From: Pseudomonadota bacterium
GTDB taxonomy: Archaea > Thermoplasmatota > SW-10-69-26 > JACQPN01 > JAJPHT01
Length of the DNA: 64,000 nucleotides
NCBI GenBank assembly: GCA_021325135.1
Contig: JAJPHT010000020.1
Coordinates: 1 to 64,000 of the forward strand
Direction of reading: 5' to 3'
The notes under the pieces were generated by a model. It had not been told where the DNA came from. It saw nothing but the letters and a program-made list of their open reading frames with translations, and ran no database searches. The position numbers and the translations under genes were made by a program. Positions 1-34,735 of the stretch are shown here, one piece after another (the first letter of the stretch is position 1; each line of letters opens with the position of its first letter).

Positions 1-1113
1 ACCTTCGAGTTCGCCTTCGTGATGGACAACCTCAAGGAGGAGCGCGAGCGCGGCGTCACCATCGACATCGCGCACAAGAAGTTCACCACGGACAAGTACT
101 ACTTCACCATCATCGACGCGCCCGGCCACCGCGACTTCGTCAAGAACATGATCACGGGCGCCTCGCAGGCCGACGCGGCCGTGCTCGTCGTCTCCGCCGT
201 CTCGGGCATCGAGGCCCAGACGAAGGAGCACGTGTTCCTGAGCCGCACCCTCGGCGTCGAGCAGCTCATCGTCTACGTCAACAAGATCGACGCGACGAGC
301 TACGACCAGAAGAAGTTCGAGGCGCTCAAGGAAGAGATCACGAAGCTGATCCGCATGGTCGGCTACAAGCCCGACAACGTGCCCATCGTCGCGGGCTCGT
401 CCTACAAGCAGGACAACATCACGAAGCCCAGCCCCAACATGCCCTGGTACAAGGGCCCCACGCTCCTCGACGCGCTCAACAACCTCAAGGAGCCCCAGAA
501 GCCCACGAACCTCCCCCTCCGCCTCCCGGTGCAGGACGTCTACTCCATCACCGGCATCGGCACGGTCCCCGTGGGCCGCGTCGAGACGGGCATCCTGAAG
601 GTCAACGACAACCTCGTCTTCCAGCCCTCCGGCGTGTCCGGTGAGTGCAAGACCATCGAGATGCACCACGAGACGCACCCCCAGGCGCTGCCCGGCGACA
701 ACGTCGGCTTCAACGTCCGCGGCATCGGCAAGAAGGACATCCGCCGCGGCGACGTGGCCGGCCACCCCAACAACCCGCCCAAGGTCGCCAAGACCTTCGT
801 CGCGCAGGTCGCCGTCCTCCAGCACCCCTCCGTGATCGCGGCCGGCTACACGCCCGTGTTCCACATCCACACGGCGCAGCTCGCCTGCACCTTCGAGGAG
901 CTGCAGAAGAAGCTCGACCCCAAGACGGGCCAGGTCAAGGAGGAGAACCCCCAGTTCCTCAAGACCGGGGACATCGCCATCGTGAAGATCCGCCCCAGCC
1001 GCCCCCTGTCCATCGAGCGCAGCAAGGACATCCCCCACATGTCCCGCTTCGCCATCCGCGACATGGGTACGACCGTCGCGGCCGGCCTCTGCCTGGACAT
1101 CGAGGAGCGCTAA
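1..1113 (+). CDS. tuf: Translation elongation factor EF-1alpha (5'-truncated by window edge)
   Basis: [33 protein letters not shown] and C-terminal RFAIRDMG motifs of archaeal EF-1alpha; reading frame is open from base 1. Confidence 0.98.
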
Positions 1114-1123
1114 ACACTTCGCC

Positions 1124-1165
1124 GGGGCGCGCCGACGCGCGCCCCCTTTTCTTTTCATTTTGTTT
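1124..1165 (+). terminator. Putative tuf terminator
   Basis: GGGGCGCG/CGCGCCCC stem followed by a long T-rich tract just after the TAA stop. Confidence 0.7.
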
Positions 1166-1204
1166 CGCTGAGCGCGAGCGCTGTCCCGCGTCGCCAGCGC
1201 GGCC

Positions 1205-1245
1205 GCCAGGCCGCGCGAGGCCGAACCCGCAGGTTCGGCCGAATC
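1205..1245. repeat. Short hairpin element, family A (copy 1)
   Basis: GGCCGAACC-CGCA-GGTTCGGCC-GAATC; its reverse complement matches 33872-33912. Confidence 0.8.
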
Positions 1246-1312
1246 CGCGACATGGGCACGACCGTGGCCGCGGGCCTCTGCCTGGATATCGAGGAGCGCT
1301 AAGCGCGCTCTA

Positions 1313-1350
1313 CGCGGCCTTGTGATATCACGAGGCCGCGCGTCTTTTTC
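1313..1350 (+). terminator. Terminator-like hairpin after the duplicated tuf tail
   Basis: CGCGGCCTTGTGATATCACGAGGCCGCG palindrome followed by CTTTTT; centred on TGATATCA. Confidence 0.55.
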
Positions 1351-2273
1351 TCATTCTCGACGTCCGAGCGCGAGCCCTCCCGCGTCGCTGCCCTTCCTTG
1401 GGCGGGGGCGCGCGGGCGCAGGAGCCACGCGAGGGCCTTGCCCGACGGCCCCGCGGGAGCGGCGGGCTCAAAGGATCTCGGGCGGGTGGTCGAGGAGCTC
1501 CGTCGCCGTCCGCTTCGAGGCCTTGACCAGAAGATATCTCGATCCGGGGATGGGGCCGTCTCCTCGAAGGGCGGCAGGCCCGCGTCGTTGAAGACGCGGA
1601 GGGCGAGCCGGGGGCTGGTCCGGTGGATCACGGGGCCGTGGGCCACCGCCGGAGCGAGGGGGGCTTTGCTGGAGCGCGGCACGGAACGTCGCATGGCCCA
1701 CGGCGGTCACCGTGGCGTGACGTTGACGGGGGCCTTCGTCTCGTGGAAGACCACAAGCGCCACCTGCCGCGGCTGGAGGGCAGCACACCTGGAAAGCGGC
1801 AGCATCATCATCGCGCACGCCGCGAAGGCCAGCCATCGCACCGGCTCCGACGGGGTGTCGGCGCATCACCGTGGCGGACCCGGGCGCGGGCCGCAACCCC
1901 TCGTTCGTGCGCCCGCGCTCCGCCTCTCCTTCGCGGCCCTGCCCACGGGCATCCCCTTGCACCAGAGGCTGGAGGTCGAGGGCGACCTCCTTGGCGCGCA
2001 CCACGCGGCGCAGGGGAAGGCCCCGCGCCTGCAGTTCGGCCGCTTCCGCGCTGGCCGGATCGTCCGGTCCTGAAGGGTGAGGGAACAGGCCGGACGGTCC
2101 GCCGCGACGGGAAGGCAGGTACGTTCGCGAACCCGGATATGGCGCGCCGGGGGGAAGTATGCGACGATGACGCGCGGAGGGCCGTGGCGCGCGGCGGTGC
2201 GCGGCGGTTCAGCGCGGTGATCCCTGGTGAAGGGACCAGAAGCTTGACGTGCGAAGCGTGCCGGGGCAGTCGC

Positions 2274-33146: not shown

Positions 33147-33839
33147 ATGAGCCGCAAGTGGCTGCGCGAGCGCAGCAAGGACTTCTGGTACAAGCTCGCC
33201 AAGAAGGAGGGGTGGCGCACCCGGGCGAGCTTCAAGCTCATGCAGCTGGACGAGAAGTTCGAGCTTCTCTTCGAGGGCGCGCGGGTGGTGGACCTGGGCG
33301 CAGCCCCTGGCGGCTGGAGCCAGGTCGCGGTGGAGCTGGTCGGCCCCGAGGGGAAGGTCGTGGGCGTGGACCTCGACCGCATCGAGCCCATGGAGGGCGT
33401 CACCTTCCTGCGCGGCGACATGACGGACCCCGAGACGGTCTCCCGCGTCATGGAGGCCTGCGGCGGCGTGGCCGACGTGGTCATCAGCGACATGAGCCCC
33501 AACATCAGCGGCGCCTACGCCACGGACCACGCGCGCAGCATCCACCTCTGCGAGATGGCCCTGGAGTTCGCCGGCAAGGTGCTCGTGCGCGACGGCGCGT
33601 TCGTCTGCAAGGTCTTCGAAGGCGACATGTTCCACGACCTCCTGGGCAAGGTGCGCGCCCAGTTCGCGGACGTGAAGGTCGCGAACCCCGCCGCGTCGCG
33701 CTCCGCCAGCAGCGAGGTCTACGTCGTCGCGCAGGGCTTCCGCGGCCCCGGCCGGTACCCGCCCCTGGCGAAGCCCAAGGAGTGGCAGGAAGGGGACGAG
33801 CTTCCCCCCAGCCGCAAGGAGCGGAGGAAGCCGGAGTGA
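33147..33839 (+). CDS. rlmE: 23S rRNA 2'-O-methyltransferase RlmE/FtsJ
   Basis: R.RASFKL, VVDLGAAPGGWSQV, SDMSPNISG, KVFEG, SR..SSEVY. Confidence 0.96.
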   Translation: MSRKWLRERSKDFWYKLAKKEGWRTRASFKLMQLDEKFELLFEGARVVDLGAAPGGWSQVAVELVGPEGKVVGVDLDRIEPMEGVTFLRGDMTDPETVSRVMEACGGVADVVISDMSPNISGAYATDHARSIHLCEMALEFAGKVLVRDGAFVCKVFEGDMFHDLLGKVRAQFADVKVANPAASRSASSEVYVVAQGFRGPGRYPPLAKPKEWQEGDELPPSRKERRKPE

Positions 33840-34735
33840 GGACCCTCCGCGTCCGCGTCGGCCATTCTCCCGATTCGGCCGAAGCTGCGGCCTCGGCCTC
33901 TCGTGAGCATGGCCTCCGCGTCCGCGTCGGCCATTCTCCCGATCCGGACGACGCCTTCATGGTGTGGGCCCTGCACGCCGGCCTCGTCCGCGAGGATGAT
34001 ATCACCATCGAGCTTGTCCCCAAGGACATCGAGTCCCTGAACCAGATGGCGCTGCGCGGCGAGGGGCCCGAGGCCAGCGCGCTCTCCATGGCGACGTTCG
34101 CCCGCGTCGCGGACACCCACTGGCTCCTGCCCCACGGCGCGTCGTTCGGCGACGGGTACGGGCCCATCGTGGTCGCGCGGGAGGACGTGGACCTGCGGCG
34201 CGTCGCTATCGCGGCGCCCGGCGAGGGCACCACCGCCTACGCGACGCTGAGGATGGCGCTTCCCGGCGCGCGCTGCGTGCAGATGCCCTTCGACGAGATT
34301 CTCCCCGCCGTGCAGCAGGGCAAGGCCGAGGCGGGCCTGCTCATCCACGAGGGGCAGATCACCTGGCAGCGCGAGGGCGTGCGCAGGCTCCTGGACCTGG
34401 GCGTGTGGTGGAAGGGCGAGACGGGCCTCCCCCTGCCGCTGGGCATCAACGCGCTGCGCAAGGACCTGGGCCCTACGCTGGGCGCGCGCGTGAACCGGCT
34501 CCTCGCGCGCAGCGTCGAGGCGGGGCTCGCGCATCGCGCGGAGGCCCTGGAGTACGCACGCGGCTTCGGGCGTGGCCTCCCCACGCAGGACGCCGACACG
34601 TTCGTCTCCATGTACGTCAACGCGCTGACGCGCGACATGGGCGAGCGCGGCCGCGCCGCGGTGGCCGAATGGCTGCGCCGGGCCGCGGACGCGGGGCTCG
34701 TGCCTCGCGGGGCGCGGGTCGAGATGGCTCCTTGA
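33836..34735 (+). CDS. mqnD: 1,4-dihydroxy-6-naphthoate synthase with a 23-aa in-frame insertion/duplication
   Basis: GHSPDPDDAFM, DIE.LN, G.GYGPIVV, GLLIHEG, PLPLG, MYVN; GTG overlaps the rlmE stop. Confidence 0.92.
   Translation: MRTLRVRVGHSPDSAEAAASASREHGLRVRVGHSPDPDDAFMVWALHAGLVREDDITIELVPKDIESLNQMALRGEGPEASALSMATFARVADTHWLLPHGASFGDGYGPIVVAREDVDLRRVAIAAPGEGTTAYATLRMALPGARCVQMPFDEILPAVQQGKAEAGLLIHEGQITWQREGVRRLLDLGVWWKGETGLPLPLGINALRKDLGPTLGARVNRLLARSVEAGLAHRAEALEYARGFGRGLPTQDADTFVSMYVNALTRDMGERGRAAVAEWLRRAADAGLVPRGARVEMAP
33844..33943. repeat. 31-bp direct repeat flanking family A hairpin element (copy 2)
   Basis: CCTCCGCGTCCGCGTCGGCCATTCTCCCGAT at 33844-33874 and 33913-33943; 38-bp spacer begins TCGGCCGAAGCTGCGGCCTCGGCC. 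Confidence 0.92.

Follow-up and report, generated by a model that had tools for sequence, protein, structure and literature searches.

Why does the gene for an elongation factor end twice? The question arises in a stretch of 64,000 nucleotides (hereafter, the window) that corresponds to G000:C36:1-64000, the start of contig C36 in G000, an archaeal metagenome-assembled genome (MAG) of 3.77 Mb in 51 contigs, 94% complete and 5.6% contaminated. The contig begins within tuf, the gene for archaeal EF-1alpha, whose open frame occupies positions 1-1113 of the forward strand with its 5' end cut by the contig start, and which matches Pfam GTP_EFTU, D2, D3 and eEF1A_C. Shortly downstream, the last codons of this gene occur again, directly behind a hairpin. 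We consider it probable that a discrete, hairpin-ended unit entered tuf at an ATC codon and displaced the resident tail; such units would form a 'gene-end recapping' family, abundant in this family of Thermoplasmata. The relatives compared were G001, G002, G003, G004, G006, G007 and G008, and the hairpin survey and the searches for Y1 transposase and reverse transcriptase covered 15 genomes of the order.

A duplicated end of tuf

The live tail of tuf, contiguous with the gene body (1054-1113, forward strand, 19 codons and TAA), recurs with a spacing of 189 nt as an orphan tail (1243-1302, forward strand). The two copies are equal at 55 of 60 bases (91.7%) and encode the same 19 residues, as the initial annotation had described: the five differences, at 1068, 1077, 1080, 1083 and 1098 (T/C, C/G, G/C, C/G and C/T, live copy first), all fall on third positions and are silent. 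Because silent changes make up only 25% of the possible single changes in the tail, finding five of five silent has a probability of about 1e-3. A third copy of the tail was found neither in the window nor in the G000 genome.

Each tail is followed by its own terminator-like stem and T-tract (stems at 1124-1145 and 1313-1340, against 0.3 expected in shuffled sequences) and by a conserved downstream box. The resemblance continues for about 100 nt past the tails, the non-coding segments 1114-1216 and 1303-1405 agreeing at 69 of 103 aligned positions, a value equalled by 1 of 500 shuffles. We read 1114-1196 (forward strand) as the non-coding part of the inserted unit, and 1303-1405 (forward strand) as the original downstream region of tuf; the DNA beyond the orphan is syntenic with the tuf-downstream DNA of G003. 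The 129 nt between the two copies hold no credible open reading frame (ORF).

The 46 nt that separate the end of the flank similarity from the second copy (1197-1242) had been taken for some 45 bp of cargo. The stretch exists, but it consists of two hairpins: a small perfect one, GCGCGGCC-GCCA-GGCCGCGC (1197-1216, forward strand), without counterpart after the second copy, and a second one of 26 nt (1217-1242, forward strand), built of GA, a 9-bp stem, a CGCA loop, the other side of the stem and GA. Within it, GGCCGAACC-CGCA-GGTTCGGCC lies at 1219-1240, and the orphan begins exactly after the closing GA, with its ATC at 1243. This 26-nt hairpin, which would form the right end of the insert, scores 56.9 bits with the covariance model R1 described below. 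When the segment 1160-1262 was folded, 1190-1194 paired with 1249-1253 (z -2.9), and 1182-1195 is able to pair with the start of the orphan.

Read-through of the stop codon, which would give an alternative C-terminus, was considered and rejected: frame 1 is open over 1114-1302, but by our own estimate chance alone would leave it open with a probability of about 0.3 at this G+C, and the corresponding spacer in G007 is 56 nt long, out of frame.

The duplication is genuine

A MAG contig might fuse the tuf ends of two strains. The 5.6% contamination of G000, the start of the contig inside tuf, and the resemblance of the two tails to two alleles would all fit such an artefact, and the initial annotation had held that it would be indicated if no sequence spanned both copies. 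Such sequence exists. A Logan contig, made by another assembler from the probable source run, spans 800-1600, and therefore both copies, with 0 differences. A contig of 162 nt from an independent run of an unrelated study, a mine metagenome, covers 1168-1329, that is, the hairpin, the junction and the orphan, again with 0 differences. In the runs X3 and X4, short contigs reach only portions of this region. Moreover, the same layout recurs at tuf and at many other genes in independently assembled genomes, and a chimera would not put a dispersed hairpin at the joint. We conclude that the duplicated tuf end is genuine and no assembly artefact, a fusion of strains being hardly credible.

The hairpin belongs to a dispersed family

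The initial annotation had proposed a genome-wide search for the hairpin and for duplications next to it. The motif GAGRGGCCGA...CGCA...TTCGGCCGA|ATC was found four times in G000 and once in G002, in every case between two copies of a gene end. A scan of 185,579 species genomes with the exact pattern gave about 100 matches, all but one of them without stem complementarity; the true one was G002. Since the exact scan yielded a single true match, the family is narrow at the level of exact sequence and a covariance model was needed. The model, R1, was built from 10 hairpin copies. Across these copies 5 of the 9 stem pairs have changed on both sides, which none of 500 shuffles matched. R1 counted 23 copies in G002, 17 in G004, 14 in G007, 13 in G008, 10 in G000, five each in G001 and G003 and one in G006, with almost none outside this family of Thermoplasmata and a range of 0 to 23 over the genomes of the order. 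Rfam 15 returned no match at the gathering score, only terminator-like ones below threshold (28.7 bits against 46, and 17.9 against 41). As the sequence is common to unrelated loci and genomes, with compensatory stem changes, the hairpin is dispersed and was not made locally.

The association with repeats was measured over 53 hairpin copies by seeking a partner sequence up to 260 nt upstream of the hairpin. A direct repeat starting at most 3 nt from the hairpin 3' end was present at 23 of 53 copies (43%), compared to 1 of 201 shifted controls (0.5%). In the relatives, the sites include ahcY, tfb, rpoN, secY, rps10, citrate synthase, an aminoacyl-tRNA synthetase and tRNA genes. Duplicates of the tuf tail itself are present also in G001, G006 (two, nested) and G007, and together with G000 they represent three different junctions, whereas none was found among 80 diverse metagenomic archaeal tuf loci. 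A metagenome scan for close relatives of the G000 tuf reached at best 89% protein identity and returned no empty-site allele of the G000 species. In G004, tuf lies on two contigs; these proved to be overlapping contigs of one single-copy gene.

At five places in G007 (C14:8543, C110:31108, C18:43293, C109:21558 and C102:35842, our loci L161, L168, L187, L194 and L195), the hairpin is a module of an intergenic repeat with at least five successive hairpins. This repeat is possibly an extended version of the element, or its master form.

Anatomy and stacking of the units

Read with the hairpin in forward orientation, the order of parts in a typical unit is gene body, first copy of the gene end (X1) starting from (A/G)T(C/T), a loop that often contains the stop codon, an inverted copy of X1, the hairpin, the second copy (X2) and the native flank. 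The conserved hairpin terminates in GA or GG beside a native (A/G)TC. The inverted copy of the gene end, a usual part of the unit, was missing from the view taken by the initial annotation; it was found at other loci of the family. Where X1 and X2 differ, namely at tfb, at the gene of a HAD phosphatase, at rpoN and at aRF1, the inverted copy fits X1 and not X2: at tfb X1 is AGGAACAGGT and the inverted copy ACCTGTTCCT, while at the HAD gene they are AACAAAAAC and GTTTTTGTT. The native flank of aRF1 has no inverted copy. Pairing of flank with flank across the hairpin was detected at 14% of copies, compared to 0.7% of permuted pairs; it is clear at a MqnA/MqnD gene within the window (z -4.15), at aRF1, and at G002 C111, G004 C109 and G004 C170, and weak at tuf. 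Three units at 5' ends keep the reading frame, with inserts of 69 nt, 54 nt and, by our own count, 51 nt. The longest unit is that at tuf in G000, whose two hairpins are preceded by 163 nt.

Because insertion recreates the target at the new gene end, units can stack. Three 56-nt units follow one another at citrate synthase of G004 and four at secY, with two or three at other genes; the newest unit of a stack would lie beside the gene. Two of these places, G004:C147:365-516 (L152) and G004:C254:8568-8796 (L143), at the citrate synthase and secY ends, look like CRISPR arrays with a period of 56-65 nt. We rejected a CRISPR array as their identity: the apparent spacers consist of a copy and an inverted copy of the last codons of the adjacent gene, with the stop codon in the loop, and G000 has no Cas1.

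The recurrence and the stacking bear on the suggestion, made in the initial annotation, that the locus resembles an att-type gene-restoring scar. A provirus or plasmid could have used the tuf 3' end as attB, supplied a replacement tail as e14 does at icd, and then been mostly deleted. Such elements, e14 with its icd and icdC among them, leave behind direct repeats of a gene end (26-60 nt) that differ silently, the 3' parts of tRNA genes are targets here as well, and G000 encodes three tyrosine recombinases. However, if each element had been deleted independently, one and the same 26-nt hairpin would not be found precisely at the junction at dozens of loci. Tandem stacks of 56-65-nt units are also present, and there is neither an ORF between the tuf repeats nor an integrase on C36. 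The insert carries no integrase or other gene, its hairpin recurs at dozens of gene ends, and the scar interpretation is not supported; a decayed classical element is, in our judgement, very unlikely. The wider proposal that a foreign allele replaced the resident end stands insofar as an element mediated the replacement. A one-off single crossover, which had been offered as the other route, does not agree with the same hairpin at dozens of gene-end junctions.

Which copy was imported

The clearest case is ahcY of G002. Here 17 of 20 codons distinguish the live copy from the orphan; up to the ATC, the gene body shares 89% identity with that of G000. In G000 the gene has a single end, which matches the G002 orphan at 55 of 60 positions and the G002 live copy at 37 of 60. 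It follows from this comparison that the resident end is the orphan, and that the insert, with its sharp left edge, comprises the live end, the spacer and the hairpin; as judged from these alignments, the X1 of ahcY is shown to be imported. At tfb the orphan has the CGC codons typical of the genus and the live copy AGG.

Over 11 coding 3'-end cases (rpoN read manually) we counted about 32 silent differences and, the junction codon aside, none that changes an amino acid; this silent-only pattern does not hold for ahcY or for the very short tails of secY and citrate synthase. Since a decaying duplicate would not show it, both copies must have been working gene ends until recently, in line with what the initial annotation had supposed for tuf.

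For tuf, comparison with the alleles of sister genomes, also proposed at the outset, separated the two tails. The live copy has the GTC GCG GCC codons of G002 and G003, and the sequence downstream of it resembles the flank of the single-copy tuf of G002 (z 8.0). The orphan sides with G004 in its codons, GTG GCC GCG, and its flank resembles that of G003 (z 3.6). Between species of the genus, tuf is 90-93% identical, which is comparable to the 91.7% between the two copies in G000. These likenesses support the view that the tails are two alleles from working genes of different lineages. By analogy with ahcY and tfb, we infer that the orphan is the resident tail, and read the live tail as the replacement end brought by the insert.

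The body of the G000 tuf is itself a mosaic, with G004 as nearest relative over 442-591, G003 over 592-741 and G002 over 817-1041. This suggests frequent interspecies recombination within tuf.

Could the repeats have arisen locally instead, by tandem duplication through replication slippage or template switching at strong hairpins, the hairpin being a native terminator or mRNA-stabilising motif under selection? A direct-inverted-direct layout is the product of fold-back and template switching, a perfect 24-bp inverted repeat follows a tRNA at G000 C37:55260, hairpins with CGCA- or GNA-type loops are very stable in DNA, and no transposase was found. Slippage, however, cannot yield a live copy that is 62% identical to its orphan, silent-only divergence requires two working alleles, and a hairpin common to unrelated loci and genomes with compensatory stem changes speaks against a local origin. 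We give this explanation only a slim chance.

A rival: insertion of the hairpin alone

The main rival supposes that only the hairpin is mobile. It would insert between staggered breaks 25-165 nt apart and thereby produce a long and variable target-site duplication, whose copies would be identical at birth, the live copy being altered later by allelic recombination with relatives.

Several observations weigh against the import of a gene end with the unit, or favour this rival. Young units often have identical or near-identical copies (59/59, 32/32, 26/26, 21/21, 36/37 and 59/60), which a plain long target duplication fits equally well. At G004 C191 and G008 C62 the hairpin that follows the stop codon is present also after the last copy, and is therefore native. 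Both tuf copies in G000 share the TAA stop and a near-identical 3' half that is absent from the relatives; this shared half could stem from in-place duplication or gene conversion. For 240 nt or more before the junction, the closest match of the G000 tuf is that of G002 (96-97%, compared to 92.6% overall), so that the left edge of the imported DNA cannot be placed at the ATC, and ordinary homologous recombination may have moved the whole tuf structure. Beside its hairpin, the G000 tuf has no clear inverted copy of X1, only weak pairing of 5-9 nt. In some nested cases (G004 C130, G002 C118 and rpoN) it is the live copy that is genus-typical; the orphans of these cases are read as older units. 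Finally, a flanking repeat is missing at 57% of the hairpin copies, and neither an enzyme nor a free or circular unit was found.

Two sets of facts do not agree with insertion of the hairpin alone. The first is ahcY, where the live copy differs in 17 of 20 codons although the body is native up to the ATC: a recombination tract would have had to end exactly at the repeat boundary. The second is the inverted copy, which co-varies with X1 and not with X2 at four loci, and which the native flank of aRF1 lacks. In addition, reverse transcriptase (RT), Cas1, DDE or Y1 candidates were not found, and we know of no enzyme family that makes such long, variable staggers. We therefore regard this rival, which fits the young identical units and neither ahcY nor the co-variation of the inverted copy with X1, as unlikely.

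Proposed mechanism and enzyme survey

In the reading that we prefer, the non-coding unit 1054-1242 would have entered tuf at the ATC codon that lies 19 codons before the stop. It would have brought its own tuf tail with stop codon, a terminator and some downstream sequence, ending in the 26-nt hairpin. Since the unit supplies its own tail, tuf is not disrupted, and the tail that was resident (1243-1302) becomes, together with its terminator, an untranslated orphan. X1 and its inverted copy may serve as homology to the target, and the hairpin as a site for a putative recombinase or nuclease. Units would move between related lineages as discrete, single-stranded, folded substrates; a folded single-stranded intermediate is likely, given that 56 nt, the length of the shortest units, is too little for a double-stranded circle.

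The search for an enzyme gave mainly negative results. Neither Y1 transposase (PF01797; the same search was positive in 6 of 14 reference genomes used as a control) nor RT (PF00078) was found in the 15 genomes of the order. In G000, at its 94% completeness, Cas1 (PF01867) was not found, nor were the IS110 DEDD transposase (PF01548) and TnpB (PF07282). The best score for the integron integrase (IntI, TIGR02249) was 68.4 bits against a cut-off of 265, and comparable matches below the cut-off were obtained in all 14 control genomes. The three tyrosine recombinases (PF00589) of G000 lie on C10, C19 and C26, none of them on C36.

We suggest, tentatively and with more doubt than for the insertion itself, that the units represent a new class of non-autonomous mobile cassette, the enzyme of which would lie outside the known transposase and integrase families, or would be a host Xer-type recombinase acting in trans. 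A folded single strand, bearing a direct and an inverted copy of the target beside a protein-recognition hairpin, would be spliced into the homologous gene end: an integron-like logic without an integron.

Other units in the window and in G000

A second unit of the window lies at the 5' end of the MqnA/MqnD gene (menaquinone biosynthesis). Its native GTG start, which overlaps the stop codon of the upstream gene, and the first 13 codons (33836-33874, forward strand) have been cut from the gene body by the insert. The conserved hairpin follows on the reverse strand (33875-33902; R1, 51.2 bits), and after it comes the inserted segment 33903-33943 (forward strand), in which 33913-33943 is a copy of the 5' end identical over 31 nt to 33844-33874, and 33903-33914 is predicted by folding to pair with the native copy across the hairpin. 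The fold of 33860-33935 was equalled by 0 of 200 shuffles. The insert of 69 nt is in frame and gives an ORF of 299 amino acids (33836-34735) whose match with Pfam VitK2_biosynth begins at residue 30, and the protein would gain 23 residues near its N-terminus. The two hairpins of the window, 32.6 kb apart and facing inward, were also considered as the ends of one composite element. This idea was dropped because each hairpin lies at its own gene end, and because the MqnA/MqnD 'orphan' is still joined to the upstream gene.

Elsewhere in G000, the aRF1 unit (C31:6931-6968) has its hairpin between two diverged copies of the gene 3' end. Three units, likewise with the hairpin between diverged copies, occupy 5' ends: that of the HAD phosphatase (C34:36949-36988), in frame and with an AT-rich recoded copy; that of a gene which we take to be GlyRS-like, Pfam giving no match (C34:70454-70493); and that of a transketolase C subunit (C33:165977-166016), where the unit supplies its own ribosome-binding site (GGAGGTG) and ATG. 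The unit in a tRNA trailer (C37:55260-55297) contains the perfect 24-bp inverted repeat already mentioned, and another lies between ABC-transporter genes (C42:11332-11373).

Repeats of other kinds were encountered in the same genome. A second, unrelated family of inserts of about 100 nt with two hairpins, their stems on GCCGCTGGCGCACCAGCGGC and CCCCGCTCCGC, occurs at C12:16024-16188, C12:109355-109600, C12:112093-112343 and C5:39756-39909, with long, nearly identical direct repeats (24 to 74 nt) on either side. The contig ends C27:1-107 and C47:23610-23716 both carry an identical repeat of 45 nt, spaced at 62 nt and, on C47, just upstream of ahcY; a repeat unit has probably interrupted the assembly here. 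At C2:26464-26640, short identical repeats resemble tRNA gene fragments and may mark another integration site.

Implications

If this interpretation is correct, essential and strongly conserved genes (tuf, aRF1, tfb, rpoN, secY, rps10 and tRNA genes) are landing pads for miniature selfish units that spare their host by bringing a spare gene end. The 'fossil' alleles beside the living genes would bear witness to DNA passed from species to species, the most highly expressed genes would have their terminators and 3' untranslated regions rewritten, and the signature of R1 with a flanking repeat could be used to seek the enzyme responsible. Annotators and assemblers should be aware that duplicated tails of this kind are genuine; contigs break at tuf both in the G000 MAG and in G004. 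Full-text searches of the literature returned no account of gene ends being replaced by hairpin units. Contributed here are the family-wide hairpin model, the hairpin-repeat statistics, the stacked arrays, the ahcY polarity test and the negative enzyme survey.

Comparison with known systems

Small dispersed hairpins that lie at the 3' ends of genes and in some cases form arrays are familiar from the REP/BIME sequences with their RAYT, the palindrome-associated elements of IS200/IS605, the RPE of Rickettsia and the MJRE of Methanocaldococcus. Some palindromes of the REP/RPE type are inserted in frame within coding sequence, as are the three 5'-end units here. To our knowledge, none of these families duplicates or replaces the adjoining gene end. 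Diversity-generating retroelements and other retroelements differ from the present units in two respects: no RT was found in the 15 genomes of the order, and the differences between the tuf copies are not adenine-specific.

Casposons are archaeal elements that target the 3'-distal part of the aEF-2 gene or tRNA genes with target duplication (PMC4046053). They differ by their size of 8-20 kb, their Cas1 and PolB, their terminal inverted repeats and their duplications of 14-15 bp; in G000 no Cas1 was found.

A further likeness is offered by e14 and phage 21, which integrate at icd of E. coli (icd/icdC) and whose attP brings a substitute for the end of the gene (PMC13626634; Hill et al. 1989 PMC210168). 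With elements of this type, and with those at archaeal tRNA genes, the units share insertion just inside the 3' end of a conserved gene, a live end that comes from the element and differs mainly by silent changes from the orphan, and the use of tRNA 3' parts as targets. At tuf, direct repeats flank the insert and the protein is kept while the ends differ, as for e14, but there is no integrase-bearing body between the repeats. The hairpin units differ further in being gene-free and 56-190 nt long, in their dispersed hairpin end and usual inverted copy, in hitting 5' ends too, and in their tandem stacks.

Integron gene cassettes with attC sites are known in archaea (PMC9668308). The hairpin units lack IntI, an attI platform and cassette ORFs, and their target is a housekeeping gene end that is copied in the unit. 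In architecture, however, they resemble attC: an imperfect palindrome lies at the 3' end of the cassette, pairing of its 5' arm with the bases at the start of the unit is clear at some units and weak at tuf, and the recombination point is just past the hairpin. In this parallel R'' would have its counterpart in the inverted copy, the L''-loop-L' core in the hairpin, and R' with the crossover point in 'GA|ATC-X'. The parallel would explain why the inverted copy matches the unit's own X1, with which it would pair in a circular form, and also the regeneration of the target and the stacking. As for integron cassettes, insertion regenerates the site, units stack with the newest presumably at the entry point, and the very short length of the units implies a single-stranded, folded substrate.

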